A DNA stretch of 64,000 bases from Parcubacteria group bacterium (GTDB lineage Bacteria; Patescibacteriota; Patescibacteriia; UBA9934; GWF2-40-263). The position numbers and the translations under genes were made by a program. The stretch is taken from contig JABMNZ010000025.1 of the NCBI GenBank assembly GCA_013204395.1, positions 9,007 through 73,006 of the forward strand. The letters are read 5' to 3'. A model generated the notes under the pieces. It was given only the letters and a program-made list of their open reading frames with translations. It made no database searches and was not told the DNA's origin. Below are positions 30,102 to 54,044 of this stretch, piece after piece; within the stretch, counting starts at the first letter, position 1; every line of letters starts with the position of its first letter.

Positions 30102-30119
30102 ATACGACGGCCGTCGCAT
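30102..30119. repeat. 16-bp-class perfect palindrome ACGACGGCCGTCG(T/C) element, copy 1 of 3
   Basis: ATACGACGGCCGTCGCAT followed by AAAGCGTTTTTTT. Copies 2 (30673-30690) and 3 (54025-54044) share a ~30-bp consensus ACGACGGCCGTCGYATRAAnnGTTTkTT. Confidence 0.8.
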
Positions 30120-30140
30120 AAAGCGTTTTTTTAGAAACAT

Positions 30141-30692
30141 ATGTCAAAGAAAAGAATTCCAAAAACAAGAGCGTATTTGCAAAAACTTACAAGGCGAATA
30201 GAACGACTCGAATCAGATATACCTATTAGTTTTGGGGCACGTGGTACAGGGGTGAGAGCAGGATCGTTTGAGATCGGTGCAAGAATCGAGAATCGAATTC
30301 AAGCAAATAAACTTAGAGTCGAAAGAGATTTGGTCAGAAATGGACTCCTAGAGATTCAGCAGAGAGGGGCTGAGACTACTTTTAGCTTGACTGTAGCGGG
30401 ATTATTACAGGTATTGAAAGACAGGATTGTTCTGGAGAGGAGAGAGATGCTTGAAGATGAGCGTTGTTTTGTTATCTTTGATGTTCCAGAAGATATTCGA
30501 AAAACCAGAAATACATTACGTCACTTTTTAAAACAAGCCGGATTTAAGCAAGTTCAGCAAAGTGTTTGGGTGACAGATAAGGATGTTGCTGATGACATGA
30601 GACAACTTGTTGAAGAACTTAAGATCTCAGATTGGGTTCGAGTGATAGTGGGGCGTTTGATCGAGACGGAATATACGACGGCCGTCGTATGA
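30141..30692 (+). CDS. winged-HTH + Cas2-fold-like domain protein (PaaX-like architecture); putative regulator or nuclease
   Basis: C-terminal CFVIFDVPEDIRKTRNTLRHFLKQAGFKQVQQSVWV...DDMRQLVEELKISDWVRVIV matches the Cas2 pattern (beta1-D, basic helix, G..Q.SVF). N-terminal LVRNGLLEIQQRGAETTFSLT looks like a recognition helix plus wing. The ORF ends inside palindrome copy 2. Confidence 0.5.
   Translation: MSKKRIPKTRAYLQKLTRRIERLESDIPISFGARGTGVRAGSFEIGARIENRIQANKLRVERDLVRNGLLEIQQRGAETTFSLTVAGLLQVLKDRIVLERREMLEDERCFVIFDVPEDIRKTRNTLRHFLKQAGFKQVQQSVWVTDKDVADDMRQLVEELKISDWVRVIVGRLIETEYTTAVV
30673..30690. repeat. palindrome TACGACGGCCGTCGTA, copy 2
   Basis: Perfect 16-bp palindrome overlapping the last codons and stop of 30141..30692. 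Confidence 0.8.
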
Positions 30693-30763
30693 ATCGTTTG
30701 TTGGAAATTTGTGATTTTATTTGGACATGTTGGCAATTAGAGATTTCTGTAGTTGAGTTAATG

Positions 30764-30842
30764 ATTGACAAAGAGGTGTCGCGCTGCTAAGTTCTTTCTC
30801 TCTGTCATCCGGCAGGGGTTTGCTAAGGAGTCTCATAATAAG
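30764..30842 (+). promoter_or_regulatory. conserved cassette promoter/leader A
   Basis: GATTGACAA...GCTGCTAAGTT...CTCTGTCATCCGGCAGGGGTTTGC, then AAGGAG and ATG 30843. Near-identical to leader B, with an 18-nt exact block. Confidence 0.55.
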
Positions 30843-31577
30843 ATGAGTAGAGACAAACGTGACGGTGGGATGGTGCTGCTCGAGGAGCCGCATTTTGATC
30901 AAATGAATCCATGGGGACAGCCGGTCGTTGGCTGGCTCCCAACTTCTCAAGGAGTGGGAGGGATTCAGAACCATCGCGGCTGGGCCATGCTCAGGACCGT
31001 GCTGTGGAAGCTGGACGAGGGTGGCAACCCCATTCCTCTGTACGACCAGCCCGTGATCGTGGAGAAGCCGGGTGCCATCGTGATCGCCACGGTGGGAGAT
31101 CGGATCGGTTTGATCCAGAGCTACCGCATGGTGGCCGAGCGACTCATGCCGGAATCGGGGAACGACTACATCCGTCGTCTTCAGAGCGAAGAACGATGGG
31201 GTGAACTGGTCGAGAGTACCGGAAAGTGGATGTGGGAGGCCCCTCGCGGTCTCATCGATGGCGACCCAAAGGAGATGGACGCAGAAGCGTTCGTGATCAA
31301 GTCGGCGAAGCTGGAGGCGGCTGAAGAGGCTGGTTTCCGTCTGAAGGGAGCTCGGCTTGTCGGTCGAGTGAACGTGAACCCCACCTTCTACCTGCACTCG
31401 CAGTGGGTGGTTCACGCCGAGATCGAATCCGTTGGTGATGCCAAGCCGGAGAACCTCGAGATCATCGGGGACAAGCGCCTGTTCACCATGGATGAACTTC
31501 GTGCGGCGAGCATCGACGGCACATTCGACGATGGACTTACTCTGGCGGGCATGGCCCTGTGCGGAATGAGTCTCTGA
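30843..31577 (+). CDS. hypothetical protein (cassette gene A; weak Nudix-like signature)
   Basis: GC-rich 244-aa ORF. ...GDPKEMDAEAFVIKSAKLEAAEEAGF loosely resembles a Nudix box. The overlapping minus ORF 30717..31415 looks like antisense noise. Confidence 0.55.
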   Translation: MSRDKRDGGMVLLEEPHFDQMNPWGQPVVGWLPTSQGVGGIQNHRGWAMLRTVLWKLDEGGNPIPLYDQPVIVEKPGAIVIATVGDRIGLIQSYRMVAERLMPESGNDYIRRLQSEERWGELVESTGKWMWEAPRGLIDGDPKEMDAEAFVIKSAKLEAAEEAGFRLKGARLVGRVNVNPTFYLHSQWVVHAEIESVGDAKPENLEIIGDKRLFTMDELRAASIDGTFDDGLTLAGMALCGMSL

Positions 31578-31588
31578 AGCGAGTCTGT

Positions 31589-31672
31589 GTTCCAGAATGA
31601 GTCCATACGAGGACTAATTCTGGAGTAAAGATTTTCTACGCGCGGTCTGAAATACGGCTGCTTTTTTGTTTG
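31589..31672 (+). repeat. cassette 3' module A: 14-bp-stem hairpin plus conserved 43-nt element
   Basis: TTCCAGAATGAGTCC...GGACTAATTCTGGAG hairpin, then GATTTTCTACGCGCGGTCTGAAATACGGCTGCTTTTTTGTTTG (31630-31672). The same 43-mer, with 1 mismatch, occurs at 32753-32795. Confidence 0.7.
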
Positions 31673-31701
31673 AGTCGAATTGTCGATCTTATACCTTTAC
31701 G

Positions 31702-31806
31702 ATTGACAATAAGTGAAATGGCTGCTAATTTGAGTCCTCTCTGTCATCCGGCAGGGTTTTGCAGATGCAGCTCTGGCCCACCAAGGTCAGTCTGTGCGAG
31801 GTTCAC
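31702..31806 (+). promoter_or_regulatory. conserved cassette promoter/leader B
   Basis: GATTGACAA...GCTGCTAATTT...CTCTGTCATCCGGCAGGGTTTTGC; GAGG SD before ATG 31807. Confidence 0.55.
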
Positions 31807-32703
31807 ATGGGAGACGAAATCACAGAGGTTCCACCCGAGATTCAGAGAGTCGCTTGTTTGGCGATGACTCCTGAGGGGCAGGTGGTGTTCGACCACACAG
31901 GTGACAGGGCGGAGCTCAGGCTTGTGCAAGGTCAGCTGTGGGCAATGGAAACGGCAGAAGAGTGTGCTCAGCGACGGCTGACCACAAGTCTCTTCGTGCG
32001 CTCAGGCTCCGAGATGAGTCTTCATAACCTGGGGCTGATCAGCCTCGGATCCGAGAGTCAGAGGACCCAGATGGTCCTGTTCGTTGCAACGGGAGTCGAT
32101 CTGAGAAAGGAAGGTATGCGGTCCATGGACGGACTGCAGGAAAACGACGAGCCTGTCCTACTGTCGCTCTACGAGATCTACAAGCAGATCAGGGAAGGGG
32201 CTATCAGCGACACGCTGGTCCAGACTGCCGTGATGCGGATGCTGGTTACCGGACTCATCAATCCACCAGGGGTATTGCCACTGGCTCGATTCACGCCGGT
32301 GCACTCGATCACTCACCACTGGTTCTCTTCATTCATGGGCCATGGGATGACCTTGACCGTCATGTCTGATGGGCGCATCAGGCTTTACGACGGGTCAGAT
32401 GACTTCTGCTCGATGCCTCCGTCGGTCTTCGGAGTTCTCGCCACGGACCTCAAGCCGATCATTCGTCGGTTGAAGCGTCAGTCGCGTCGCAAGAGTGGTG
32501 TCTGGAGCTTCCGTCTCTACTTCTACCACGGCTACACCTACGACTACGCCGCCAAGAGGGACCGTGGAGGCAATGGTCCGCACCTGACGTTGTACTACGA
32601 GGTCAAGGAGCTCGAAAATGCACGTGCGCTCGCCATCAAGTTCCAGGAGATCCTGGATGCTCAAGCGAAGCTCCCTCAACTGAACCGACTCTGGTTCTTC
32701 TGA
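31807..32703 (+). CDS. hypothetical protein (cassette gene B)
   Basis: GC-rich 298-aa ORF with no recognisable motif. The track ORF starts at TTG 31759 inside the leader. Confidence 0.55.
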   Translation: MGDEITEVPPEIQRVACLAMTPEGQVVFDHTGDRAELRLVQGQLWAMETAEECAQRRLTTSLFVRSGSEMSLHNLGLISLGSESQRTQMVLFVATGVDLRKEGMRSMDGLQENDEPVLLSLYEIYKQIREGAISDTLVQTAVMRMLVTGLINPPGVLPLARFTPVHSITHHWFSSFMGHGMTLTVMSDGRIRLYDGSDDFCSMPPSVFGVLATDLKPIIRRLKRQSRRKSGVWSFRLYFYHGYTYDYAAKRDRGGNGPHLTLYYEVKELENARALAIKFQEILDAQAKLPQLNRLWFF

Positions 32704-32711
32704 GAATCTCT

Positions 32712-32795
32712 AATCCCGAACCTGCGCTTAGATGTGCAGGTTCGGGATTGTGGATTTTCTACGCGCGGTCTGAAATACGGCCGCTTTTTTGTTTG
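32712..32795 (+). repeat. cassette 3' module B: perfect 14-bp-stem hairpin plus conserved 43-nt element
   Basis: AATCCCGAACCTGC-GCTTAGAT-GCAGGTTCGGGATT, then GATTTTCTACGCGCGGTCTGAAATACGGCCGCTTTTTTGTTTG. Confidence 0.7.
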
Positions 32796-32841
32796 GTTGG
32801 AAGTTTGACGACATTTTATACACATCGTAGAGTATCGCCGT

Positions 32842-33924
32842 ATGAAAGCACTCATTGCAGCAGGTGGGCACGCAACACGTTTGCGGCCTATTACATGGAC
32901 GAGAAATAAGCATTTGATACCAATGGCTAACAAGCCAATGCTTTGGTATGTTCTTAAAAAGGTTACGGATGCTGGAATCAAAGACATCATCGTTAATGTG
33001 AATCCTGGCGAGGTAAAGTACATGTCTGATGCCCTGGGTGATGGCAGTGAGTTTGGTGCAACCATCACGTACTTGGAGCAGCGCGGGGGTGCTAAGGGGT
33101 TGGCTCATGTTGTGGCCAATGCTGAGGAACATCTCAAGGGTGAGCGATTCCTATTTTTCTTGGGCGACAATATTATCTTGGGATCCATCAATAAGTTTGT
33201 TGATCGATTTCAAAATGAGGAGCTCGACTGCATGATTGCTTTGTCGCATGTGAAGGACCCACATCGTTTTGGTGTTGCAGAGTTTGGTGTTGATGGAGAA
33301 CTTACACGGACGGTTGAAAAACCAAAGGATCCACCATCACCATTTGCCGTCACAGGAATTTATTTATTCGACGAAAAGTATTTTGAAGCTTTCAAGAACA
33401 TTGATCCATCTCCACGAGGTGAATATGAAATTACGGATATCATTACCTGGTATATCCGTAATGGAAAAGTTGGGCACGAGGAGATTACTGGATGGTGGAA
33501 AGATACTGGAACACCAGACGCACTTATTGAGGGCAACGCTCTCATTATGGATGACATGGAGCGCGGTGAATTCTGCGTGGACTGTAAGCCTCATGTGGAC
33601 GCACAGATTCAAGGACTTGTATCCATAGGTGAGGGGTCGGTTATTTCAAGTGACTGCTTGATCCGTGGACCTGTAACCATTGGAAAGAACTGTGTGATCG
33701 AATCAAGTTTTATCGGTCCGTACACGGCCATAGGGGATGGTGTGACGGTTCGCAATACAGAGGTTGAGCACTCCATCGTATTTGAGGGAGCAACGATCGA
33801 TACCACAAGACGTATTGTAAATAGTCTTATTGGCACAAACGCAACGCTGGTAGATCACAAACGGTCGCATCCAAAAACCAGCCATAGGCTGGTGATCGGT
33901 GATAATAGTTTTGTAGAGCTGTAA
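32842..33924 (+). CDS. rmlA: glucose-1-phosphate thymidylyltransferase (long form with C-terminal left-handed beta-helix)
   Basis: MKALIAAGGHATRLRPITWTRNKHLIPMANKPM... nucleotidyltransferase motif. 360 aa. Upstream TTGACG-17-TAGAGT promoter-like sequence. Confidence 0.8.
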   Translation: MKALIAAGGHATRLRPITWTRNKHLIPMANKPMLWYVLKKVTDAGIKDIIVNVNPGEVKYMSDALGDGSEFGATITYLEQRGGAKGLAHVVANAEEHLKGERFLFFLGDNIILGSINKFVDRFQNEELDCMIALSHVKDPHRFGVAEFGVDGELTRTVEKPKDPPSPFAVTGIYLFDEKYFEAFKNIDPSPRGEYEITDIITWYIRNGKVGHEEITGWWKDTGTPDALIEGNALIMDDMERGEFCVDCKPHVDAQIQGLVSIGEGSVISSDCLIRGPVTIGKNCVIESSFIGPYTAIGDGVTVRNTEVEHSIVFEGATIDTTRRIVNSLIGTNATLVDHKRSHPKTSHRLVIGDNSFVEL

Positions 33925-33959
33925 AAACAATCAGGTGAAACAAGTCCTTATGGGCTTGT

Positions 33960-35282
33960 TTATTTTTGAAGCTCTCTTTGCCAGATGGTTCCATCTTCTC
34001 CCATAAGAAGCATGACGTCTCCTTCGTCTAAGATTAGAACTTGCCCAGGAGTATCTGTGATTAATGGAAGGTGATCTGGTTGAGGGTCTTTGATGGCTAG
34101 GGCAAACGTGGTACCCGCCGCTTGATAGAGAACCACGGACCCCTTTGGGTACCATGCAATTTGATCGATTTTTTCACTGAGTCGCGTGATGGTGTGGGTT
34201 TGGTGCTGATCTCGTTGATAAAGTCGTAAGTCGAAATCACTTGTGTAGAGAAGTTGTTGGCCGTTTTTGTTCCATGTCCACCGTACTGCCATTTCATTGA
34301 GAAGAATTGGCTGCTCTCTGTTATTGGTATCAATGAGAATCAGTCGGTTGTGTTGAGAATCAAAAAGTCCAATGAGGGGTGATGGCGTAGGAATAAATGT
34401 GTAGTTTCCCAGTGGAAGATAGGTGATGATCGAGGCAATCTCTTCATCAAGAAAAGAGAGGACTGATCGATTGTTGTGTTCTGAGAGAATGATATTTCGT
34501 TCCTCAAACGAGGTTATTACAGACAGATCTGTGATAATGAGTTCCTTTGTGTAGGCTTTGATATCTACCTTAAGGGTTTCGTTGTCTGCCTTTACGTATA
34601 GCAAGTTGTCGTCTTCAACATCCCACCAGTAGGAGTCAACGTCTGCGAGCTCCATTGAAAGAGTTGATGGAACGTTACTATTTGTTTCAACTGGGACAAG
34701 TTCATGAAGTGATCCATATTCCCTTACTAGGAGAACATAGTCACCCTGAGGAGAAAATGAAATTGTGTAATGACTTGAACGGTTAAAGGAGAGTCTCATG
34801 AGCAGTTGAGTTGAGCTTTCATCTCCCTCTGTGCTCCACATTTCGAGCCAAGAACTTTCTTGGGTGAGGTATATGAGTTTATCTCCAGAGGGGCTTACAC
34901 CTGAAGCCAATATATTAAGATGCTGGACCGGTACAGGCTCTTTGTCTAGAAAAAGAATGACATCAGCGAATGTTGTTTCTCTACTTTTGAAGAATAGATT
35001 TTGTTTCCAGGAGATATACTCATCTTTTTCCAGCTTGATTTCATGCTCCCCTGGCAACACCGTTTCAATAACTGATGGAGTACGATCATATTCTTGTTCT
35101 CCGTCTATAAGCACATTGGCATTTCGTGGAACAGAGGTCATGTTGAGCACGGCGGTGTGTACAATGCGTCCGGATGCAATATCGAGTCTATAGCCAGCTG
35201 TATACAACACCAAAAGTGGTGCAGCAATCAAAAACATGAGAACAAAGGTTAGAAAAATGATTAGTCGAAGTTTGGATGACAT
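33960..35282 (-). CDS. membrane-anchored PEGA-domain protein with beta-propeller-like C-terminal region
   Basis: N-terminal TM, then a PEGA-like segment VLIDGEQEYDRTPSVIETVLPGEHEIKLEKDEY. 440 aa. Confidence 0.5.
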   Translation of the reverse strand: MSSKLRLIIFLTFVLMFLIAAPLLVLYTAGYRLDIASGRIVHTAVLNMTSVPRNANVLIDGEQEYDRTPSVIETVLPGEHEIKLEKDEYISWKQNLFFKSRETTFADVILFLDKEPVPVQHLNILASGVSPSGDKLIYLTQESSWLEMWSTEGDESSTQLLMRLSFNRSSHYTISFSPQGDYVLLVREYGSLHELVPVETNSNVPSTLSMELADVDSYWWDVEDDNLLYVKADNETLKVDIKAYTKELIITDLSVITSFEERNIILSEHNNRSVLSFLDEEIASIITYLPLGNYTFIPTPSPLIGLFDSQHNRLILIDTNNREQPILLNEMAVRWTWNKNGQQLLYTSDFDLRLYQRDQHQTHTITRLSEKIDQIAWYPKGSVVLYQAAGTTFALAIKDPQPDHLPLITDTPGQVLILDEGDVMLLMGEDGTIWQRELQK

Positions 35283-35340
35283 ACGAAGGTAGTTTACACC
35301 ATTCTCAGATGAGGTATCCTATGAATCGTTAGATACTATT

Positions 35341-36645
35341 ATGCTTCCAAGAAAACAACAAAAAAATAAGCAACCATTTCCAAGATCATTTACAGTTTTA
35401 CTTCTCCTCCTCGTAACAACGATTGCCTTCAGCATCGGTTTTTTTGTTGGGGAGACAAGTAGAGCACGTGAGCTGGTTCCAGTTGGAGAGGGGGTTGTTA
35501 CTGAGAAAGGGGATGTGCCTCCATATTTAGCGGATGATATTTCGTTTGAACAGTTTTGGAGTGTGTGGAACTTTGTCAAAGAAGAGTTTTACAAACAGCC
35601 GGTAAGTGATAAGGATTTGTTTTATGGATCTCTAAAGGGGTTGCTTTCTGGATTAGATGATCCGTACTCTGTCTATTTTGATCCAGAAGAAAGGAATAAG
35701 TTTAATGCAGATCTTGAGGGGAGTTTTGAGGGAATCGGGGCTGAGATTGGAATTAAAGACGATCAGTTGCAGATTATCGCACCTCTTTCGGGTATGCCAG
35801 CTGATTTAGCTGGTTTGTTGCCGGGAGATTGGATTGTAAAGATTGATGGGACAGAAACAAGAAACATGAGTGTTGAGGCCGCCGTCTCTCTTATTCGTGG
35901 TGAGGGAGGAACAGAGGTGGTTCTCTCTATTTATCATGAGGGATTAGAGGCAATTAAAGATGTGACCATTGTTCGAGGCAAGATTGTGATCGATTCCGTA
36001 AAGTGGGAGACAGATGAGAATAAGATCATGGAGATCTCTATCTCTACATTTAATCACGACACAAGTGGGTTGATGAATGAGGCTATTCAGGAGGCGCTTT
36101 CTACAAACGTAGAAGGCATTGTTCTCAATCTTCGCTCAAATCCAGGTGGGTTGTTAACCACAGCGATTGATATAGCCAGTGCCTGGGTTGGATATGACAC
36201 AGTGGTAATAGAGAGAACTAGAAGTCAGGCAAATACCTTTAATGGTGTAACCGCTCCTCGACTTCAGGATATCCCAACGGTTGTCCTGGTAAATGGTGGA
36301 AGTGCCTCTGCTTCTGAGATTGTTGCTGGAGCACTCCAGGACTATGGTTATGCGACTGTTGTTGGGACTCAGACATTTGGAAAAGGATCCGTACAGGATT
36401 ATCAGGAGCTCTCTGATGGTTCTGCGGTAAAGATCACCACAGCGGAGTGGTATACACCAAATGGGAGGACAATAAATAAGACTGGGCTTTCGCCGGATAT
36501 AGAAATCTTGTTTACACTTGAAGAGTATGAAGCGGGGATCGATCCTCAGTTGATTGTCGCCAAAGAGATCATTTTGGGAACGTATGAACCAACCGAAGTC
36601 ACAATCGAAGAAACCGACCCCACCGAGAACATCGAAACCGAATAA
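35341..36645 (+). CDS. S41 C-terminal processing (tail-specific) peptidase with PDZ domain
   Basis: PDZ GIGAEIGIKDDQLQIIAPLSGMPADLAGLLPGDWIVKIDG; catalytic region LNLRSNPGGLL ... Signal anchor. Confidence 0.8.
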   Translation: MLPRKQQKNKQPFPRSFTVLLLLLVTTIAFSIGFFVGETSRARELVPVGEGVVTEKGDVPPYLADDISFEQFWSVWNFVKEEFYKQPVSDKDLFYGSLKGLLSGLDDPYSVYFDPEERNKFNADLEGSFEGIGAEIGIKDDQLQIIAPLSGMPADLAGLLPGDWIVKIDGTETRNMSVEAAVSLIRGEGGTEVVLSIYHEGLEAIKDVTIVRGKIVIDSVKWETDENKIMEISISTFNHDTSGLMNEAIQEALSTNVEGIVLNLRSNPGGLLTTAIDIASAWVGYDTVVIERTRSQANTFNGVTAPRLQDIPTVVLVNGGSASASEIVAGALQDYGYATVVGTQTFGKGSVQDYQELSDGSAVKITTAEWYTPNGRTINKTGLSPDIEILFTLEEYEAGIDPQLIVAKEIILGTYEPTEVTIEETDPTENIETE

Positions 36646-36664
36646 AAAAGGAAAGCGAGAAAAG

Positions 36665-37105: not shown

Positions 37106-37138
37106 CCAGACTCACGTGGTCTGATCTACTAATAGTGT

Positions 37139-38094: not shown

Positions 38095-38108
38095 AAGGTT
38101 CAGTACAA

Positions 38109-38137: not shown

Positions 38138-38164
38138 TTTTAAGTTTTTTAATGATTGAAGCAT

Positions 38165-39739: not shown

Positions 39740-40306
39740 GTGTCCACCCCTGTGATAGACTTGGGGTATATGACAAATCAAGTACCAAAGCTTTGGATCT
39801 TTTTCTTTATTATTATCGCCGGACTTATTGTTGGGTTCGCCTTGAGTAGTCCCGCCGTTCAGGAACAGGAAGAAGTTGTAGACTTTCAGGAAAATGTTGA
39901 AATGACGGGGGTTAGAGAACAAACCTTCGGTGCGATGTTGGATGGTGGGGGTAATGCTATTTACTTAGAGAACCAGTTGTCCGGTACTACGGGTGTGCAA
40001 GTTGGATTTGCCGTCCTGGCTAGGCCTGGGTTTGTGGTGATCTTTGATGATGACGATGGTGTGCCCGGGAAGGTGATAGGGGCCTCTGATTATCTGCAGA
40101 ATGGTGGGGAGCATTTAACCGTCGCATTGCAAACGTTTTTAATTGACGGAGCTGTGTACTACGCCGTTCTATATCACGACAACGGAGATCTTGTTTTTGA
40201 CGAGAATGCTGACTCACAAGCACTGGATTCGACAGATTCTGTAGTCCTTATGACCTTTCTTTCAACCTATGAAGCACAACCTGAGGTTGGTGCGATAACG
40301 CCTTGA
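39740..40306 (+). CDS. hypothetical secreted/membrane-anchored protein
   Basis: N-terminal TM LWIFFFIIIAGLIVGFAL; 188 aa. Confidence 0.5.
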   Translation: MSTPVIDLGYMTNQVPKLWIFFFIIIAGLIVGFALSSPAVQEQEEVVDFQENVEMTGVREQTFGAMLDGGGNAIYLENQLSGTTGVQVGFAVLARPGFVVIFDDDDGVPGKVIGASDYLQNGGEHLTVALQTFLIDGAVYYAVLYHDNGDLVFDENADSQALDSTDSVVLMTFLSTYEAQPEVGAITP

Positions 40307-40378
40307 CACCTTTGTTTGCGGAGCGTATCTTCATTACTCGTTGGCGCATCCCGTGCTGACAAGTGACAAGGAGAGCTC

Positions 40379-40867
40379 GTGTCTCGAAGAAGTCGAATGA
40401 AAGACAGGCCCAAGAATCCCCGTCAGCGCATGCTTGAGGAGCTGCAGGAATTGCTGGCGTTGGCTCGTGAAGCCATCTCCACGGAGACCGATCCGCTGCT
40501 GATCAACGCTGATCAGCTCGCACCGGTTCTGGAGTTGGCGGAGCGGACCGCGAAGATCGCGCGGACCTACACGATTCAGCGTGAGCTGATGATGGAGATC
40601 TACGGGCTGTTGATCAGTGGGAAGTTCAACTTCCGTCTGCTCGACGAGATCTTCCAGGGACGTCGTGGGAAGAGGCCTACGGCCGTCTTCGACCAGAGCA
40701 TCAAGATCATCTCGATCCAGGTCGCTGGTCGCATCCCCGTGAACGAGGCACATGTTCGTGACCCGCTCACCGGTGAGAGCATGCCGGCCACGGAAGTCCG
40801 TGTGGGTCTGATCGAGTTCCTCACGTCCATTGGGCGTCACGTCGAAGCCGGAGCCTTCGCGCTTTAG
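40379..40867 (+). CDS. hypothetical protein (GC-rich islet)
   Basis: AGGAGA SD then GTG start. 162 aa. The overlapping minus ORF 40334..40903 looks like antisense noise. TTGACA-17-TATCTT promoter-like sequence at about 40303. Confidence 0.5.
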   Translation: MSRRSRMKDRPKNPRQRMLEELQELLALAREAISTETDPLLINADQLAPVLELAERTAKIARTYTIQRELMMEIYGLLISGKFNFRLLDEIFQGRRGKRPTAVFDQSIKIISIQVAGRIPVNEAHVRDPLTGESMPATEVRVGLIEFLTSIGRHVEAGAFAL

Positions 40868-40890
40868 GCCACACGACCACAACACGCAAT

Positions 40891-40921
40891 CCCGGTATGG
40901 CACCTGTCATCCGGGTTTTTT
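40891..40921 (+). terminator. terminator after 40379..40867
   Basis: CCCGG-(15 nt)-CCGGG followed by TTTTTTG. It contains CTGTCATCCGG, the same 11-mer as the cassette leaders. Confidence 0.5.
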
Positions 40922-40938
40922 GATAGAATGGTTTTGAT

Positions 40939-41472
40939 ATGGATATTCCAGTTAGAAAAAGTAAACGTGCCAAGAACATGTCTATTGTGGTTCATTCCGG
41001 TGGGCGATGGGAGGTTGTGGTACCAGCTCTTAGGGGTCCGTCTGACAGAACGATCAAAAGACATGTGGATAACCATCGTGACTGGATCGAGAAACAGGTG
41101 GATCGTATGAGTCGGGAAAAAGAGCGAGATACGCTCTGTCATGGTGGTGTGGCACGAAGCGTTGTTGAAGAACAGACATTGCAGATGATCGAGGCAACAG
41201 TTTTGAAAATGAGACGGGTTCATCCTGTAACGATCGAAAAGATCCGTCTTGGAAACTGGAAGAGGCAGTGGGGGAGTTGTAGCAGTGGTATGACCCTTGG
41301 TTTTCACTATAAGCTTTCTTTGCTGCCCACACATCTCGCAGAATATATCGTCGCTCACGAACTTGCCCACACAACCCATTTTAACCACTCAAAGGCCTTT
41401 TGGGAGCTGGTTGAGAGACTTTGTCCCAATGCTAAATCTTGCCGAAAAGCTCTGCGACAGTTCACCTTGTGA
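40939..41472 (+). CDS. YgjP-like (DUF45) HExxH metal-dependent hydrolase
   Basis: HELAHTTHFNHSKAFWELVERL matches the YgjP family signature. Confidence 0.75.
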   Translation: MDIPVRKSKRAKNMSIVVHSGGRWEVVVPALRGPSDRTIKRHVDNHRDWIEKQVDRMSREKERDTLCHGGVARSVVEEQTLQMIEATVLKMRRVHPVTIEKIRLGNWKRQWGSCSSGMTLGFHYKLSLLPTHLAEYIVAHELAHTTHFNHSKAFWELVERLCPNAKSCRKALRQFTL

Positions 41473-43581: not shown

Positions 43582-43584
43582 AAT

Positions 43585-46181: not shown

Positions 46182-46184
46182 CAT

Positions 46185-47600: not shown

Positions 47601-47602
47601 TT

Positions 47603-48145: not shown

Positions 48146-48171
48146 TAAGATGTGCTATAATCGGTCACGTT

Positions 48172-48738
48172 ATGCCAAATAAAGAAGTTGTTTTAGACAT
48201 AGAAACACAAACCGCTGCCGGCCCTGATTTTAAGCAGATGAAGATATCTGTTATAGGGGTCTATTTTTATGAGACGGATTCATACGAATGTTATGAAGAG
48301 AAAGACTTCGCTCGCTTGTGGCCACTTCTTGAGCATGCTGATCGAGTAATCGGATACAACTCTCGATACTTCGACATGCCAATCATGAATAATTACTACC
48401 CGGGTGACCTTAATGCATTTCCTCAATTGGATATGTTAGAAGAAATACGCAACTCACTTGGGTTCAGATTGAAGTTGGATGACGTAGCAGCTGCCACGGT
48501 GGGGTATCGCAAAAGTGGGCATGGACTTCAGGCTGTCGACTGGTGGAAAGAGGGGGAGATTCAGAAGATAAAAGATTATTGCCTTCAAGACGTAAAAGTA
48601 ACCAAAGGGGTGTATGAGTATGGTCTAAAATACAATGCTTTGGCCTATGAAGATCGTGTGGGTGGGAGGAAGGCAATCCCAGTTGATTTTGCATTAAAAG
48701 AGGAAGCTCCCGCCATCAACCTAAGTATGGGGTTTTAG
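48172..48738 (+). CDS. DEDDy-type 3'-5' exonuclease (RNase D/DnaQ-like fold)
   Basis: VLDIETQT (Exo I), IGYNSRYFDMPI (Exo II), YCLQDV (Y-x3-D, Exo III). Confidence 0.6.
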   Translation: MPNKEVVLDIETQTAAGPDFKQMKISVIGVYFYETDSYECYEEKDFARLWPLLEHADRVIGYNSRYFDMPIMNNYYPGDLNAFPQLDMLEEIRNSLGFRLKLDDVAAATVGYRKSGHGLQAVDWWKEGEIQKIKDYCLQDVKVTKGVYEYGLKYNALAYEDRVGGRKAIPVDFALKEEAPAINLSMGF

Positions 48739-48784
48739 ACCCAACCTGTGTCTAGTGTCGTGAAAATGTGTGGATAACCACCTC

Positions 48785-48839
48785 TTTGACACACAACATA
48801 TAGTGGCCTATCATACTAACTGACCACAAGATGTAGTGG
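48785..48839 (+). promoter_or_regulatory. nrdJ promoter with two tandem NrdR boxes
   Basis: TTGACA (48785-90), 17 nt, TATCAT (48808-13). Box 1 ACACAACATATAGTGG (48791-48806) matches the acaCwAtATaTwGtgt consensus at 14/16. Box 2 CCACAAGATGTAGTGG (48824-48839) matches at 12/16. The boxes are 33 bp apart, about three helical turns. Confidence 0.6.
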
Positions 48840-48986
48840 TGGCAGTGGGGAAGAGGATCTTTAGATGGTGCAGACCCTTCCAGGAGAATATATGATCCCA
48901 ACGTTGGATCGTATTTTTATCTGCCAAGTATCAGCCAAACATTTCTTTCAAAAACTCGCCTAATCAACCTAAGTTCCTCGCTTGTT

Positions 48987-51900
48987 ATGCTAGACCAAAC
49001 CAACATCAAGGTTAATGACCAAACCGTTGATACAAAAGCGATATCAGAAACAGTTTGGGATTTTATGACATCTGTAAAAACCGTTCAGAAACGTAGCGGC
49101 GAAGAACAATCTTTCGACCAAAAAAAGTTGATGGATTCAATCCAGCATGCACTGCATGCTGCAGGAATGAAGGATGGACGGTTGGCACAAAAGATTACAG
49201 AGCAAGTGCTTACTCGTCTTACCCGCCAGTTTGATGGTCATACAATTCCATCTATTACAGACGTTCGCGAATTTGTTTACCTCACGTTTATTGATAATAA
49301 CTTGGTGCACGTTGCAAAATCATATAGTTCATTTAGGAGCACAAATCGTGAAGATGACCGTAATGAGAAATATGGGCATGGCATAAGTACTTCACGTTAC
49401 TTTACAAAACAAGGAGTTCATCCTTATGACGAGATCGAGTGGGAAAAGCGAGATGCGGTCATTAATGATTTCAAGGGAAACATAGTTTTTGAACAAAAGG
49501 GTGTAGAGGTTCCAAAGACATGGTCACAGACTGCAACCAACATTGTTGTTTCAAAGTATTTCTTTGGCACAGTTGGAAATGAAAACCGAGAGTATTCAGT
49601 CAGGCAGCTTGTTGGTCGAGTTGCAAAGACTATTTCAAATTGGGGGCGCAAGGATGGTTATTTTCAAACTCAAGAAGACGCACAAGTATTTGATGATGAG
49701 CTACATCACATTTTGGTAAACCAGATGGCAGCGTTCAATTCACCGGTTTGGTTTAATGTAGGTACAACACGTCCACAGCAGTGCTCTGCATGCTTTATCA
49801 ACTCTGTTGAGGATGACATGCGTTCAATTCTGAACCTATGTGTTACCGAGGGCATGCTTTTTAAAGGTGGTTCTGGTGCAGGTTCAAATCTTTCAAGACT
49901 TCGTTCTAGTCATGAGTACCTTGGTGGTTCAAATGGAAAGGCCTCTGGACCAGTGTCTTTCATGAAAGGATTAGATGCTTTTGCTGGTGTGATCAAGTCT
50001 GGTGGAAAGACACGTCGAGCGGCAAAGATGGTTATTCTAGATATTGGACATCCAGACATCGACAAGTTTATTACCTGTAAGGTGGCCGAAGAGGAAAAAG
50101 CATGGGCTCTTATGGATGCTGGGTATGACGGTTCTATTGATGGACCAGCTTATGCATCGATTTATTTCCAAAATGCCAACAACTCTGTTCGTGTAACAGA
50201 TGAATTCATGCAGGCTGTTGAAGATGATGGTGATTGGGAGACAAAAGCTGTAACGACTGGAGAAACAATGCAGACTTGGAAGGCACGTGAGCTCATGGCT
50301 ATGATGGCTGAGGCTGCATGGAAGTGTGGTGACCCAGGAATGCAGTACGACACAACCATTAACAAGTGGCATACCAGTAAAAACACGGACCGAATTTACG
50401 CATCAAACCCATGTAGCGAGTACATGTTCCTAAACGATAGTGCTTGTAATCTTGCTTCACTTAACCTTTTGAAGTTCCGTAAGGAAGTCAATGGTGAATT
50501 GATATTTGATGTAGAGGCCTTTAAGAGGGCTAACGAGATCATTATTACAGCCATGGAGATTCTTATTGGAAACTCTGTGTACCCAACACCTGCCATCGAG
50601 CAGAACTCTCACGACTACCGCCCACTTGGAATCGGCTATGCCAACCTTGGGGCCTTGCTCATGAGTCGTGGTTTAGCTTATGACTCAGATGAGGGACGAA
50701 ACTTGGCTGGTGCCATCACCTCGTTGCAGAGTGGACACTGTTACTATCAAAGTTCAAAGATCGCGGAAAAGATTGGGGCCTTTAATGGTTACGCCAAAAA
50801 TGCAGAGCCTGCCATGGAGGTCATGCGCATGCATCGTGATGCCGCTTACTCAGCGAGCAACGCCGGTGTCCCCGAAGAGCTCATGACAGAATCTCGGAAG
50901 TCTTGGGACAATGTGGTTGAGCACGGAAGCAAGTTTGGTCTTCGGAACGCGCAGATTTCAGTGCTTGCCCCAACGGGAACGATTAGTTTCTTGATGGACT
51001 GTGACACCACAGGTGTTGAACCTGATATTGCGCTAGTAAAGTACAAGTGGCTTGTAGGTGGCGGAATGATGAAGATTGTAAACGGAACCGTTCCTGAGGC
51101 GCTCACACGTCTTGGTTACACAGATGTTCAAAGAAATGAGATTCTTGCCTTCATTGAAGAAACAGACACTATTGAAGGAGCTCCTCATGTGAGACCAGAA
51201 CATTTGTCTGTATTCGATTGCGCATTTAAAGCCGCGAAGGGGACACGAACAATTCAGTATATGGGTCATCTTAAAATGATGGCCGCTGTACAACCGTATA
51301 TTTCTGGTGCCATCTCCAAGACTGTAAACATGCCTCACGAGGCAACCGAGCAGGAGATTGCCGATGTGTATATGGCTGGATGGAAGCTTGGTCTTAAGGC
51401 TATTGCTATCTATCGTGACGGATCTAAGCGTCAGCAGGCGCTTACAACATCTAAGGAATCAGATGCGAAAAAGCAGAACACGGATCGTGATCAGGAGGTT
51501 GAGGACGAGAAAGCACGTGTCATAGAGACTGTGAAGGTCATGAATGATAGGAAACTGCGACGACGACGACTACCAGATGAACGTCGATCCATCACACATA
51601 AGTTTGCCGTTGGAAATCATGAGGGCTATATCACCGTTGGACTTTATGACGACGGAACGCCAGGTGAGCTATTCATGACAATGGCCAAGGAAGGTTCAGT
51701 AATATCAGGTTTAATGGATTCGTTTGCTACGTCGATTTCGATCGGCCTTCAGTACGGGGTGCCACTGGAGGTATTGGTAAACAAGTTCGTCCACATGCGC
51801 TTTGAGCCATCTGGTTACACGAACAACCCACAGATCCGTATTGCCAAGTCCATCACGGACTACATCTTCCGCTGGCTAGCGATCAAATTCCTGCCACGTG

Positions 51901-52184
51901 AGAGTCAGTTGTCAGTAGGGATTAATGTGGTAGATGAGGATGTTGATGAAGCAGCTGTGTCGGGGGGCACAGGGGAGGTGGCAAAAGAAATGGTTGCAGA
52001 CAAAGCTGCTGATCAACCAAATCTTTTCCAGGCTGCTCCTGAACAGAGTGCAACCCGCGCTCACACACAAACCTTTGACAACCAGTCCGACGCACCAGCC
52101 TGCGACACATGCGGCTCCATCATGGTCCGCAACGCTGCCTGCTATAAGTGCTTGAACTGCGGTGCAACAAGCGGTTGTTCATAA
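48987..52184 (+). CDS. nrdJ: class II (adenosylcobalamin-dependent) ribonucleotide reductase with N-terminal ATP-cone
   Basis: 1065 aa. ATP-cone VQKRSGEEQSFDQKKLMDSI. C-terminal Cys cluster CDTCGSIMVRNAACYKCLNCG typical of NrdJ. Confidence 0.85.
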   Translation: MLDQTNIKVNDQTVDTKAISETVWDFMTSVKTVQKRSGEEQSFDQKKLMDSIQHALHAAGMKDGRLAQKITEQVLTRLTRQFDGHTIPSITDVREFVYLTFIDNNLVHVAKSYSSFRSTNREDDRNEKYGHGISTSRYFTKQGVHPYDEIEWEKRDAVINDFKGNIVFEQKGVEVPKTWSQTATNIVVSKYFFGTVGNENREYSVRQLVGRVAKTISNWGRKDGYFQTQEDAQVFDDELHHILVNQMAAFNSPVWFNVGTTRPQQCSACFINSVEDDMRSILNLCVTEGMLFKGGSGAGSNLSRLRSSHEYLGGSNGKASGPVSFMKGLDAFAGVIKSGGKTRRAAKMVILDIGHPDIDKFITCKVAEEEKAWALMDAGYDGSIDGPAYASIYFQNANNSVRVTDEFMQAVEDDGDWETKAVTTGETMQTWKARELMAMMAEAAWKCGDPGMQYDTTINKWHTSKNTDRIYASNPCSEYMFLNDSACNLASLNLLKFRKEVNGELIFDVEAFKRANEIIITAMEILIGNSVYPTPAIEQNSHDYRPLGIGYANLGALLMSRGLAYDSDEGRNLAGAITSLQSGHCYYQSSKIAEKIGAFNGYAKNAEPAMEVMRMHRDAAYSASNAGVPEELMTESRKSWDNVVEHGSKFGLRNAQISVLAPTGTISFLMDCDTTGVEPDIALVKYKWLVGGGMMKIVNGTVPEALTRLGYTDVQRNEILAFIEETDTIEGAPHVRPEHLSVFDCAFKAAKGTRTIQYMGHLKMMAAVQPYISGAISKTVNMPHEATEQEIADVYMAGWKLGLKAIAIYRDGSKRQQALTTSKESDAKKQNTDRDQEVEDEKARVIETVKVMNDRKLRRRRLPDERRSITHKFAVGNHEGYITVGLYDDGTPGELFMTMAKEGSVISGLMDSFATSISIGLQYGVPLEVLVNKFVHMRFEPSGYTNNPQIRIAKSITDYIFRWLAIKFLPRESQLSVGINVVDEDVDEAAVSGGTGEVAKEMVADKAADQPNLFQAAPEQSATRAHTQTFDNQSDAPACDTCGSIMVRNAACYKCLNCGATSGCS

Positions 52185-52194
52185 GAGATAATAA

Positions 52195-52220
52195 AACGAG
52201 GTCCTATGGCCTCGTTTTTG
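52195..52220 (+). terminator. terminator of nrdJ
   Basis: CGAGGTCC-TAT-GGCCTCG followed by TTTTTG. Confidence 0.6.
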
Positions 52221-52245
52221 GTATACTGAATAAAATAGTATTTTT

Positions 52246-53931
52246 ATGAAAAGATTTTATTTACTCCTACTTCTTACCCTTCTCATTATCCCAGGGGTGA
52301 TCTATGCCTTTAATCAAGATCTGACTGAGCGGCTACATGGGTACATCTTGCTCCAGGTCGATCAGCATGGGGAAGCATGGTATGTGCGGGACACGGATGA
52401 CAAACGCTATTACATGGCCAATGGGGATGCGGCGTACTCAATGATGCGTTTCTTTTCTTTGGGGATTACAGACGCTGACCTGGCAACGATTCCTTCTGTT
52501 TCTGATACCACAGAGATGTTGGCATCTGCGTCGGCATGTGATTATAACTCCCTCGCTAACAGTCTCAAGGGAAAAATATTGCTTCAGGTCGAGCAACATG
52601 GGGAGGCGTGGTACATCTATCCGGATCGATGTCGGATGATTTACATGGAAGACGGAGCTGCGGCTTACACCATCATGCGCTTTTTGGGACTTGGAATTGC
52701 GGATAATGATCTTGCACAAATAGAGATGGGAAAAGTGGATGGCTATACCGAGGTTCAATACGATGATTCGACATCGATAGACCCCAATGAGACGAGTGAG
52801 TCCACGGCCGTATCATGGCCATCAGATATAGGAACGTCACATTTTGGTCGGCTGACAGAATTTGGACGGATTGACTCACAGCTTGAGGGGGGATGGGTGC
52901 GCCCACACTCAGGACCGTTTGTTTGGGATTGGATTGAGGGTACTCAGGGCACCTACCAATGGGATCAGGCCGATGAGGTCGTTGCTAGTCTTCAGGGGGA
53001 TCGTCAGGCCATTCTTGCTACGATCTGGGGATTTGCAAACTGGGATCAGGAGCAATGCCATGACAGCAGCGACGATACAAACAATGGATTCATTCGCACC
53101 ATGGATTGGATGCATGCACCGTGTGATGAGAGTGCTTATCTCGCTTGGTTAAGTGATGTGGTTGAGCGCTATGATGGTGATGGGGTCGATGACATGCCGG
53201 GACTTGAATACCCCGTCAGGCATTGGGAGATTTTTAATGAGCCGTCAATGCAAGATGGCACCGTCTTCTTTCAGGATGATGCTCAGACCTATGCTGAACT
53301 TCTGGCCGTTTCGTATGAAGCGATTTTAGCCGCTGATTCAAATGCCATCGTCCTTCCGGCGGGGCAAGCTGGAATGCATGCAAGTTCAGTAGCTTATTGG
53401 GATAACGTCCTTGGCGAGATTAGTGGCGTATTTGATATCGGAAACATTCATTCAATTTCATCGAGTAATGTTTTTTGGAGCGATGACTATCGAGACTATC
53501 TGGACGATTTTGGGTATGCAGATACCGATTTCTGGGTCACCGAAGCACTTGTTGGCGATTTTTCACAGAATCTTTCAGATGATGACGCGGCACAACTGAC
53601 GTTTACAAGCTATGTCAACGCCTTTGCAAACGGAGCCTCTGTTATATTCAACGTTGGCGCTCACGATCCAACGGGTGGGCCTGGAGAAGCCTCTGAAGAG
53701 ACATTCGAGATGATGGCTGCCTTCATTGGTGCGTTTAGCCGTGTTGAACGCATGGACGATACGACCGTCCTTTTTCAGCTACCTGACGGAACAACTGTTT
53801 ACGCAATATGGGACGGAGCCTCGTTACCAAATGGAGTCACCGGGACAATGAGTGTCTTGGAGTATGACGGTGATAGCTATCAGGCAGAAGCCGATCACGT
53901 CACTAGCACCATTCCATTGTTTGTTTATTAG
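52246..53931 (+). CDS. secreted protein with two tandem ~60-aa N-terminal repeats and a GH-A-like (NEP motif) catalytic domain
   Basis: Signal peptide MKRFYLLLLLTLLIIPGVIYA. Repeats LHGYILLQVDQHGEAWYVRDTDDKRYYMANGDAAYSMMRFFSLGITDADLA and LKGKILLQVEQHGEAWYIYPDRCRMIYMEDGAAAYTIMRFLGLGIADNDLA. HWEIFNEPS motif. Confidence 0.5.
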   Translation: MKRFYLLLLLTLLIIPGVIYAFNQDLTERLHGYILLQVDQHGEAWYVRDTDDKRYYMANGDAAYSMMRFFSLGITDADLATIPSVSDTTEMLASASACDYNSLANSLKGKILLQVEQHGEAWYIYPDRCRMIYMEDGAAAYTIMRFLGLGIADNDLAQIEMGKVDGYTEVQYDDSTSIDPNETSESTAVSWPSDIGTSHFGRLTEFGRIDSQLEGGWVRPHSGPFVWDWIEGTQGTYQWDQADEVVASLQGDRQAILATIWGFANWDQEQCHDSSDDTNNGFIRTMDWMHAPCDESAYLAWLSDVVERYDGDGVDDMPGLEYPVRHWEIFNEPSMQDGTVFFQDDAQTYAELLAVSYEAILAADSNAIVLPAGQAGMHASSVAYWDNVLGEISGVFDIGNIHSISSSNVFWSDDYRDYLDDFGYADTDFWVTEALVGDFSQNLSDDDAAQLTFTSYVNAFANGASVIFNVGAHDPTGGPGEASEETFEMMAAFIGAFSRVERMDDTTVLFQLPDGTTVYAIWDGASLPNGVTGTMSVLEYDGDSYQAEADHVTSTIPLFVY

Positions 53932-53953
53932 ATTCAGTTATTAGTGAAGAAAA

Positions 53954-53981
53954 ACATTCGCCATGAGGCGGATGTTTTTTG
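53954..53981 (+). terminator. terminator after 52246..53931
   Basis: CATTCGCC-ATGA-GGCGGATG (one G-U) followed by TTTTTT. Confidence 0.55.
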
Positions 53982-54024
53982 ATGGTGACATGGTGTGATT
54001 ATGAGCAAATCAGTCCCGACGGAA

Positions 54025-54044
54025 ATACCGACGGCCGTCGTATA
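54025..54044. repeat. palindrome element ATACCGACGGCCGTCGTATA, copy 3 (1-nt insertion relative to TACGACGGCCGTCGTA)
   Basis: It shares the extended consensus with 30102 and 30673 and is preceded by a partial direct repeat CCGACGGAAATACCGACGG. Confidence 0.7.

Follow-up and report, generated by a model that had tools for sequence, protein, structure and literature searches.

The closest described relative of the protein considered here is PaaX, the phenylacetyl-CoA-responsive repressor of E. coli and Pseudomonas (PDB 8a39 and 3L09; NCBIfam TIGR02277), in which a winged helix is followed by a Cas2-like middle dimerization domain and a C-terminal effector (phenylacetyl-CoA) domain. E. coli PaaX acts as a repressor of its own promoter; its target, TGATTC(N27)GAATCA, is a dyad of 39 bp with widely spaced half-sites (PMC9493321). 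The locus described here resembles this system in the first two domains of its protein and in its long dyads, which span 32–45 bp and, in their upstream copies, lie over promoter-like elements. It differs in that the protein has 183 residues rather than ∼305 and lacks the effector domain, there is no paa operon, no aromatic catabolic gene and indeed no conserved neighbor at all, and a second matching site lies at the stop codon. The family, moreover, has strongly diversified apparent specificities, with several paralogs per genome, and is nearly limited to Patescibacteria.

With Cas2 of CRISPR adaptation, and with VapD, the protein shares the ferredoxin fold, the FD motif of strand β1 and an invariant Asp, and its gene is formally spacer-like, sitting between two partly palindromic repeats of ∼36 bp. 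Unlike in CRISPR, there is neither a cas1 gene nor a CRISPR array, array-like repeats are missing from the window, nothing Cas1-like appears among the recurrent neighbor clusters, only two repeats are present, 571 bp apart, and the protein is twice the size of Cas2 with an extra N-terminal DNA-binding domain. A gene flanked by cognate palindromic repeats, with palindromes specific to each paralog, is reportedly also the arrangement of the REP-associated tyrosine transposases (REP/RAYT and REPIN systems); here a small gene is likewise enclosed, but the protein is not an HUH/Y1 (IS200-like) transposase and the palindromes, as judged from the window and ∼0.5 Mb of DNA flanking 80 loci, do not form dispersed repeats. 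Controller (C) proteins of restriction–modification systems and type II antitoxins are small dimers with orthogonal specificities that act on palindromes at their own promoters, are carried on accessory DNA and control an adjacent endonuclease or toxin gene. The present unit would similarly combine a small autoregulator and palindromic operators in an accessory module, but it has no partner gene, and its second site lies where the regulator gene itself ends. Identity with an integron cassette was rejected: a 3′ palindrome is present but is repeated upstream, the core is CGGCCG and not the GTTRRRY of attC, and no integrase recurs as a neighbor. No description of a palindrome–gene–matching palindrome layout around PaaX-like genes was found in literature searches.

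The window (the whole 64-kb stretch of DNA that was analyzed) contains four features of interest, given here with a slash separating the two halves of each dyad.
30093 to 30128, no strand: palindrome copy 1 (upstream, U), 36-bp dyad AAACGAAACATACGACGG/CCGTCGCATAAAGCGTTT
30141 to 30692, + strand: gene for the PaaX-like protein, 183 aa, identified by Pfam PaaX_M, NCBIfam cas2, an AF2 model and fold matches
30664 to 30699, no strand: palindrome copy 2 (downstream, D), 36-bp dyad AGACGGAATATACGACGG/CCGTCGTATGAATCGTTT
54017 to 54053, no strand: palindrome copy 3 (solo), CGACGGAAATACCGACGG/CCGTCGTATAAATGGTTT, the left arm having one additional C

The 183-aa protein combines an N-terminal winged helix (helices and a β-hairpin wing) with a C-terminal Cas2-type ferredoxin fold, the layout of the first two domains of PaaX. 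Pfam PaaX_M (PF20803) was matched with E = 1.5e-17 and 63.9 bits (cutoff 24) and NCBIfam cas2 (TIGR01573) with 30.6 bits (cutoff 24.5), whereas the score against the PaaX equivalog TIGR02277 was below its cutoff (25.5 versus 264.55 bits). PaaX_C gave no match, the protein stopping at residue 183. The AF2 model had a pLDDT of 85, and the closest folds in the PDB were E. coli PaaX (8a39, the best match), Cas2 structures and Rv0674; Cas2 entries in the PDB were also matched by sequence. Residue D114, equivalent to the catalytic Asp of Cas2, was invariant in the family alignment, which makes a nuclease role possible. PaaX_M/Cas2 were the sole domain matches, and neither an HUH motif nor a catalytic Tyr was present among the invariant columns. 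The NCBI name for this protein, “CRISPR-associated endonuclease Cas2,” is most likely a misannotation.

The palindromes share a dyad of ∼36 bp, AAACG-N4-ATACGACGG/CCGTCGTAT-N4-CGTTT, of which 0.07 copies would be expected in 64 kb and three were found. In the window scan, TACGACGGCCGTCGTA was matched three times with three or fewer mismatches, a count reached by 0 of 100 dinucleotide shuffles. These matches lie at 30103–30118 with one mismatch (copy 1), at 30674–30689 without mismatch (copy 2), where the full perfect palindrome has 18 bp (ATACGACGGCCGTCGTAT, 30673–30690), and at 54027–54042 with two mismatches, equivalent to one inserted C (copy 3). The original prediction had announced a perfect palindrome present three times; the three copies stand, but as only copy 2 is perfect, that title was a slight overstatement. 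The context shared by the copies proved wider than the 30 bp claimed, with a common element of ∼36–37 nt, ACG-N4-ATACGACGGCCGTCGYAT-N4-(C/G)GTTT (repeat family D3; ungapped identity to copy 1 of 84 and 73%). Further copies were found neither in the window nor in 4.8 kb past its left end.

As had also been proposed, two of the copies flank the winged-helix/Cas2-like gene. Copy 1 is centered at 30110/30111, 31 nt ahead of the ATG (30141), in the same position class as the U copies at homologous loci and just downstream of a terminator-like hairpin (30050–30079) belonging to an rmlD-like gene. Copy 2 (center 30681/30682) runs across the end of the gene, over its final six codons (YTTAVV) and its TGA stop codon (30690–30692). 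Copy 3 (center 54034/54035) is situated in the 200-nt spacer separating the convergent genes 52246–53931 (+) and 54132–54692 (−), both of which are equipped with a terminator-like hairpin. Remnants of PaaX-like coding sequence were not detectable at copy 3, and a tblastn search of the window gave no family gene besides 30141–30692. Identity of the solo copy as a MITE was rejected: it consists of the ∼37-nt dyad alone, with no flanking duplication and a low copy number.

For comparison, 99 unique homologous loci from Patescibacteria were collected, and at each of them the 150 nt preceding the start were compared with a 140-nt stretch spanning the stop; motifs common to both were scored against a background of mismatched locus pairs. 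The median score was 22.5 versus 8 for mismatched pairs, and the score lay above the 99th percentile of the latter at 65% of the loci and above the 95th at 78%. The motif common to U and D is a palindrome of 20–64 bp, usually with CGGCCG at its center and with lineage-specific arms; median arm scores were 10.5 (U) and 14 (D), compared with 4.5 for both shuffles and control windows 1–2.5 kb away. The D copies peak 10–30 nt past the stop (35 of 63 centers at +10 to +30), and U and D have no fixed orientation relative to each other. Paralogs of one MAG have differing palindromes (e.g. L026, L033, L037 and L039), and locus-specific probes of 22–24 nt gave matches only at U and D of family genes. 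Within ∼0.5 Mb of DNA flanking 80 loci, the locus-specific palindrome was confined essentially to the two gene-flanking sites, and there was only ∼1 true solo palindrome among these loci; the solo at L081 occupies an operator-like position, 18 nt upstream of the start of a TrxB-like gene. The family is large (>5000 clusters at 50% identity, often with several divergent paralogs per small genome) and is found almost only in Patescibacteria. That palindrome and gene are tied family-wide, and not just in the window, is strongly supported.

A promoter-like −35/−10 pair tends to overlap the U copy and not the D copy. A −10-like hexamer was present 15–41 nt to the gene side of the U dyad center at 28 of 50 loci, compared with 42 of 172 controls (the far side of U plus both sides of D; Fisher p = 5e-5), and a −35-like hexamer often fell within the right arm of U. 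Upstream of the window's own gene, no consensus σ70 promoter was detectable. Between U and D, 111 compensated changes were counted versus 8.8 expected, and the one-sided mismatches were 12 of the G·T type and 12 of the A·C type, with no wobble excess. Because the arms change together and leave no wobble-pair signature, the symmetry is maintained at the DNA level. The parts in which U and D differ remain self-complementary inside each copy, suggesting that hairpins or cruciforms form or that the two arms are homogenized against each other.

Hairpins that act independently of the protein, as bidirectional intrinsic terminators or mRNA-end stabilizers insulating the gene, would be one explanation of the palindromes. 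Copy 2 (+ strand) and copy 1 (− strand) were indeed called terminator-like in a simple, lax scan, the D copies begin right past the stop, and many family palindromes have a GC-rich core with A/T tracts on its flanks. However, the tracts that follow the core of D copies were T-rich in 11 cases and A-rich in 19, an orientation that is not terminator-like; the mismatches show neither G·U excess nor strand asymmetry; the hairpins of the window have no extra stability over shuffles (z-scores of −0.2 to −0.5); and Rfam gave no match for the palindromes. The ordinary terminators of the source genome look different and adjoin copies 1 and 3, and generic terminators are not expected to be identical at both ends of a gene yet different between paralogs of the same genome. 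We consider this explanation improbable. A REP/MITE-like repeat had been suggested at the outset. As a generic dispersed repeat placed beside the PaaX-like gene by chance, it would account for finding three copies in 64 kb, of which one is remote from the gene. This reading is largely refuted, and its remaining probability is very small: different palindromes flank the gene at most of the 99 homologous loci, they almost never occur elsewhere in the ∼0.5 Mb of flanking DNA, and the 24-nt pattern had 0 matches among 185,579 species-representative genomes.

The palindromes might instead mark the termini of a small cassette, mobile or selfish in nature, or serve as its recombination sites, an explanation that we regard as unlikely. 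Its winged-helix–Cas2-fold protein would read the arms and cleave the C-GGCC-G center, itself or through a host enzyme directed there, possibly on hairpins or cruciforms, so allowing the gene to be excised, inserted or exchanged; solo copies would represent vacant targets or scars left by excision. The comparison of orthologous loci in related genomes, which the original prediction had recommended, did reveal presence/absence polymorphism in a single syntenic slot, as a cassette would produce. The unit of gene and palindromes is present in the window, among rml sugar-nucleotide genes, and in L003, and is not present in L125, L126, L127 and L129–L132 (RmlA 83–86% identical); four syntenic genomes from which it is missing are equally close. 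The slot occupied by the PaaX-like module is a variable one. Also in favor of a cassette, the L099 and L100 units are 99% identical with flanks of 84–88%, a case of recent exchange, L020 and L027 are paralogs in unrelated contexts in one MAG, and no neighbor is conserved across 109 loci (465 neighbor proteins in 383 clusters). The number of divergent paralogs and clusters, the invariant Cas2-type Asp, the conserved center with variable arms and perfect self-complementarity in every copy, the solos (copy 3 and L081) and an unrelated solo perfect palindrome of 46 bp in the empty slot of L129/L130 point the same way. The empty slots of L125–L127, however, contain no palindrome, and the block exchanged between L099 and L100 has its boundaries away from the palindromes, 81 nt beyond U and >110 nt beyond D. 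Together with a homologous GC-rich ORF that occupies the same RmlD–RmlA slot in L125 and L127 without palindrome or PaaX-like gene, these boundaries speak against the earlier proposal of a recombination site marking GC-rich acquired DNA. Neither target-site duplications nor a hybrid-arm pattern were seen, U and D being each symmetric and not mutual mirror images; identical copies at different sites were not found, and the mixed U/D orientation and the unremarkable stability of the window's hairpins likewise count against a cassette. No Cas2-fold protein is known to act as a recombinase or transposase. Also doubtful is a version in which the unit is a hitherto unrecognized element of candidate-phyla-radiation bacteria, either a cassette of mobile or selfish nature or a module that processes DNA on its own, with a Cas2-fold nuclease working at the C-GGCC-G center of long palindromes, perhaps extruded as cruciforms or hairpins, arm specificity provided by the winged helix, and solos as empty or vacated sites; if true, the protein would be a Cas2 relative with its own sequence-specific DNA transaction, outside CRISPR.

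The reading that we favor, with a probability of about 0.58, is that the 183-aa PaaX-like protein recognizes all three palindromes as its cognate sites in double-stranded DNA and that gene and sites form a self-contained autoregulated accessory module. It is supported by the homology to PaaX in the winged-helix and Cas2-like domains and by dyads in the size class of the 39-bp PaaX dyad, along with the family-wide tie between gene and palindrome, the paralog-specific palindromes, the promoter overlap of U copies, the DNA-level symmetry and the operator-like L081 solo. The protein would dimerize via its Cas2-fold domain, as PaaX does via its middle domain, so that each outer arm of the ∼36-bp dyad would be contacted by one winged-helix domain, with the CGGCCG center under the dimer. 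The upstream site, over the gene's own promoter, would serve negative autoregulation, and the site at the stop codon may be a second operator without a promoter, bracketing the gene as a loop anchor or as a transcriptional roadblock or insulator. The module is autonomous, as judged from its unconserved neighbors and the random orientation of the downstream neighbor (49 on the same strand, 45 on the opposite). Gene and both sites would constitute a fast-evolving accessory module that is gained, lost or exchanged as a unit in candidate-phyla-radiation genomes. Copy 3 would be a solo site sharing their specificity, as an additional target or as the remnant of a lost module. Of the operator regulon first proposed, the strong, family-wide link between palindrome and gene and the tendency of U copies to overlap a promoter were upheld; no regulon beyond the module's own gene was shown, solo copy 3 and the L081 solo being the only hints of one.

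Some observations run counter to the operator reading. With no conserved neighbors and almost no sites beyond its own gene, the target of the protein is not obvious. The D site is promoterless and tightly coupled to the stop codon, and classical operator models need neither; palindromes of up to 40–64 perfectly symmetric bp exceed what a winged-helix dimer should specify; and copy 3 sits between two convergent terminators, away from a promoter. The invariant Cas2-type Asp, the self-complementarity within each copy and the window gene's lack of a consensus σ70 promoter belong here as well.

Candidate-phyla-radiation bacteria have tiny genomes with few recognizable regulators. A family in which each member has its own pair of long cognate palindromes supplies a directly testable predicted DNA site, which is rare for uncultivated organisms, and would represent a natural library of orthogonal protein–DNA pairs on the PaaX/Cas2 scaffold. 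A widespread “Cas2/VapD” annotation is corrected at the same time. The compensated evolution, seen in both arms of both copies, is a clean case of concerted evolution of a DNA palindrome, and the unit as a whole is a candidate for a new autonomous module, which may be a self-insulating autoregulator or a mobile cassette.

The palindrome TACGACGGCCGTCGTA matches the window three times, against 0.07 matches expected, and none of 100 shuffles reached three. These copies, and the gene bracketed by the first two, are as follows.

30103–30118 (dyad 30093–30128), copy 1 of TACGACGGCCGTCGTA, one mismatch
30141–30692, + strand, PaaX-like gene (winged helix plus Cas2 fold)
30674–30689 (dyad 30664–30699), copy 2, perfect, inside an 18-bp perfect palindrome
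54027–54042 (dyad 54017–54053), copy 3, one extra C

The original prediction of one palindrome present three times with a common context held for the sequence as described, but the palindrome is perfect only at 30674–30689, and the context amounts to a dyad of ~36 bp, (A)AACG-N4-ATACGACGG/CCGTCGTAT-N4-CGTTT, outside which alignment of the three copies showed no similarity. Two copies do flank the wHTH/Cas2-like gene, as had been proposed: copy 1 is centered 31 nt upstream of the ATG and comes directly after a terminator-like hairpin that is distinct from it and belongs to the rmlD-like gene upstream, and copy 2, 571 bp from copy 1, extends over the final six codons and the stop. Copy 3 is intergenic; the genes on its two sides are convergent, and both have a terminator-like hairpin of their own. 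By eye, roughly half of the ~23 bases preceding the motif of copy 3 agree with the 3′ end of the PaaX-like gene, and tblastn found no coding remnant of a decayed paralogue there; the adjoining ORF (54132–54692) had no family match in any library. No further copy was present in the 4.8 kb outside the window, the window itself holding one solo copy in 64 kb. The exact pattern CGACGGCCGTCGYATRAANNGTTT gave no match in 185,579 species genomes, and the source species is therefore not among them.

The 183-amino acid product matched Pfam PaaX_M ("PaaX central Cas2-like domain") at 1.5e-17 and the Cas2 model TIGR01573 weakly, and scored far below the PaaX equivalog cutoff. Its AlphaFold model (pLDDT 85) comprised two N-terminal helices, a beta-hairpin wing, another helix, and a ferredoxin fold (beta-alpha-beta-beta-alpha-beta); the best PDB matches were E. 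coli PaaX (8a39), many Cas2 structures, and the PaaX-like Rv0674. By these domain, model, and structure matches, the protein is of PaaX type, cut down to the DNA-binding and dimerisation domains. Asp-114, which aligns with the Cas2 catalytic Asp, was invariant across 19 relatives, and nothing CRISPR-like was found near the gene. The window derives from a Parcubacteria/Uhrbacteria-like MAG, in which NCBI names the protein "CRISPR-associated endonuclease Cas2", and a homologue is named "VapD" by JGI; across the family both names are likely to mislead, given that cas1 and an array are lacking and a further DNA-binding domain is present. A phage or defence link was also considered and rejected, with PADLOC returning Cas2 models only and PHROGs nothing.

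Relatives of this protein form a family of 5198 representatives of 50%-identity clusters (E ≤ 1e-10), nearly all of 160–200 amino acids. The first three homologues examined (41–55% identical) each had their own, different near-palindrome, placed ~35 nt upstream of the start as well as at or after the stop. Loci encoding relatives were then fetched (120 in total, almost all from Patescibacteria and often several per MAG), and in the 99 unique loci the stretch of 150 nt before the start was compared with the 140 nt around the stop, with mismatched locus pairs as the null. The best motif shared by the two regions had a median score of 22.5, compared with 8 in mismatched pairs, and exceeded the 99th percentile of the null in 65% of loci and the 95th in 78%. 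This motif is a palindrome of 20–64 bp, termed U upstream of the gene and D at its stop, with arm scores that greatly exceed those in shuffles and in control windows 1–2.5 kb away. The center hexamer was CGGCCG in 67 of 109 palindromes, and nearly all others had C-NNNN-G; the arms were lineage-specific, and paralogues of one MAG had different arms. No conserved neighbor was found among 465 neighboring proteins (383 clusters), and the downstream neighbor was codirectional with the gene in 49 cases and oppositely oriented in 45. Both sites therefore belong to the gene and not to an operon partner.

Where both U and D were clear palindromes (33 loci), 111 differences between the two copies were compensated (both arms changed, still Watson–Crick), against 8.8 expected under independence, and 80 were one-sided. 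The outer arms of U and D may differ completely yet remain self-complementary within each copy (L098, L032, L033, and L038). Between L014 and L021, whose genes are 86% identical, 5 of 19 arm positions differ by eye, and the changes are repeated in the other arm and in the other copy. Within the TGTCC-AGCT-GGACA subgroup (L037, L044, L046, and L056), the tract on the 5′ side of the core is of A in U (GAAATATGTCC...) and of T in D (GATTTATGTCC...). This distinction is kept across different MAGs; U and D are thus not interchangeable, which suggests two functionally distinct sites.

D centers were tightly placed, with 35 of 63 at 10–30 nt past the stop, and U centers were scattered from −10 to −110. 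A −10-like hexamer was found 15–41 nt to the gene side of the U dyad center in 28 of 50 loci, compared with 42 of 172 controls, which were taken from the side of U facing away from the gene and from either side of D (Fisher p = 5e-5), and the matching −35-like hexamer was often the right arm of U itself, e.g. TGGACA or TTGACG. Relative to these controls, the placement of the hexamers suggests that U tends to overlap a promoter-like pair of the gene and that D lacks a promoter. Elsewhere, the rmlA start codon lies 8 nt after a TTGACG-N17-TAGAGT promoter-like pair (window 32805–32844; L125 9956–10003), which suggests that mRNAs in the window/L125 lineage may be leaderless or near-leaderless and bears on how promoter positions are judged there. 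A solo 38-bp perfect palindrome of the locus's own type was observed at L081 770–807, 2.9 kb from the family gene; its neighbors are a DsbA-like gene on one side and, 18 nt downstream, the start of a TrxB-like gene, which is an operator-like position, and it is one compensated pair of changes apart from the D copy.

The operator dyad bound by E. coli PaaX, TGATTC(N27)GAATCA, spans 39 bp; PaaX represses its own promoter through steric hindrance, and its middle domain has been described as a dimerisation motif (PMC9493321). The family palindromes agree with this operator in size and geometry. We favor, with a probability of about 0.58, the reading in which the encoded PaaX-like protein, as a dimer, has the palindromes as its cognate operators. 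On this reading, copy 1 would serve autoregulation of the gene's own promoter, copy 2, as a second site that lacks a promoter, would bracket the gene as a loop anchor or as a roadblock/insulator, and copy 3 would be a lone site with the same specificity. The chief difficulty for this operator model is the excess symmetry of the palindromes: strict symmetry over 40 bp is more than a winged-helix dimer should specify, which suggests arm-to-arm homogenisation via transient hairpins or a need for cruciform or hairpin DNA.

Orthologous loci were compared for presence or absence of the unit (U, gene, and D), a check that came with the original prediction, using genomes equally related to the window genome, with RmlA 83–86% identical. 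In the slot between rmlD and rmlA, the unit was present in L003 but absent from L125, L126, L127, L129/L130, and L131/L132, where other cassettes or a bare spacer fill the slot. Between the window and L003, the PaaX-like proteins are 54% identical and the RmlA proteins 84%. The L099 and L100 units are 99% identical to each other and their flanks 84–88%; the identical block begins 81 nt before U and extends >110 nt beyond D, so the palindromes were rejected as boundaries of the exchanged block. The L020/L027 paralogues share 77% nucleotide identity in unrelated contexts within one MAG. Taken with presence and absence in the slot, the L099/L100 and L020/L027 sequence comparisons indicate that the unit is an accessory, fast-evolving, laterally exchanged module. 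An IS-like insertion, absent from the otherwise near-identical L099, was seen ~110 nt downstream of D in L100 (2772–4130), with a 410-amino acid ORF resembling an HTH plus DDE transposase by eye and a 17-nt duplication, GTTAGCACGTTGAGCGT. The 250-nt spacer of the empty slot in L129 contains a 46-bp perfect palindrome at 3861–3906 (in L130 at ~2919–2964), TGTAGGGAACCCAAGACCCTACA/TGTAGGGTCTTGGGTTCCCTACA. Either arm forms a hairpin by itself; the sequence bears no relation to the window palindrome, and there is no family gene nearby.

Between copy 2 and rmlA (window 30700–32842) are two GC-rich ORFs, 30765–31577 and 31759–32703 (~55% GC versus ~45% for the genome), both absent from L003. They share a TTGACA promoter and leader (30798–30823 and 31737–31762, 96% identical) and a 62-nt 3′ element (31618–31679 and 32741–32802, 85%). 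The first has a NUDIX-like motif by eye, and neither had a match in Pfam, NCBIfam, PADLOC, or PHROG. More GC-rich blocks (52–63% versus a ~45% background) at 17000–22000, 40000–41000, 54100–54700, and 57000–63000 suggest several patches of foreign or atypical DNA in the window contig. A second, unrelated palindrome family, TCGGAAGCTAAGCTTCCG, occurs at 7689–7707, 19199–19217, and 57286–57304 (0 expected by chance) with 37–49 nt of shared context; the copies at 19199 and 57286 are in GC-rich DNA beside hairpin-like sequences, and no gene associated with these palindromes was identified. A 30-bp perfect palindrome at 7088–7117, TCCGGCGGAGCCGGATCCGGCTCCGCCGGA, is unrelated to the three copies of the dyad.

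The main rival to the operator reading, a mobile or selfish cassette with the palindromes as substrates of the Cas2-fold domain, is considered unlikely. The slot, L099/L100, and L020/L027 comparisons gave no sign of the palindromes themselves as recombination points. Cut-at-center insertion, with hybrid arms and U the mirror of D, was not supported by eye in the window, L037, L044, L052, or L098. Nor did the palindromes prove to be recombination sites marking acquired GC-rich DNA: the L099/L100 block edges lie outside them, and the RmlD–RmlA slot holds a homologue of window ORF 30765–31577 (52% identity) in L125 and a NUDIX ORF in L127, with neither palindrome nor PaaX-like gene at either locus. 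The palindromes are thus not needed for the GC-rich ORFs and were rejected as their insertion sites.

A role as terminators only is improbable, since after the GC core more D copies are A-rich (19) than T-rich (11) and the window copies fold no better than shuffles; termination as a general role was rejected on these two grounds. A sense-strand RNA hairpin was likewise rejected for want of wobble enrichment or strand asymmetry, the one-sided mismatches comprising 12 of G.T type and 12 of A.C type, neither of them more frequent than T.T or A.A. Rfam gave no matches over the whole window. That the copies belong to a dispersed REP/MITE-like mobile repeat, as also proposed at the outset, is scarcely credible and was rejected: 22–24-nt probes from 77–80 loci matched only U and D of family genes, with a single genuine solo, that of L081, as the exception.

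An autoregulator with a palindromic operator is an already known kind of system. In the full-text literature searched, no description was found of the palindrome pair that brackets the gene, of its conservation throughout the family alongside diversified specificities, or of its restriction to bacteria of the candidate phyla radiation (the fetched loci being almost all Patescibacteria).
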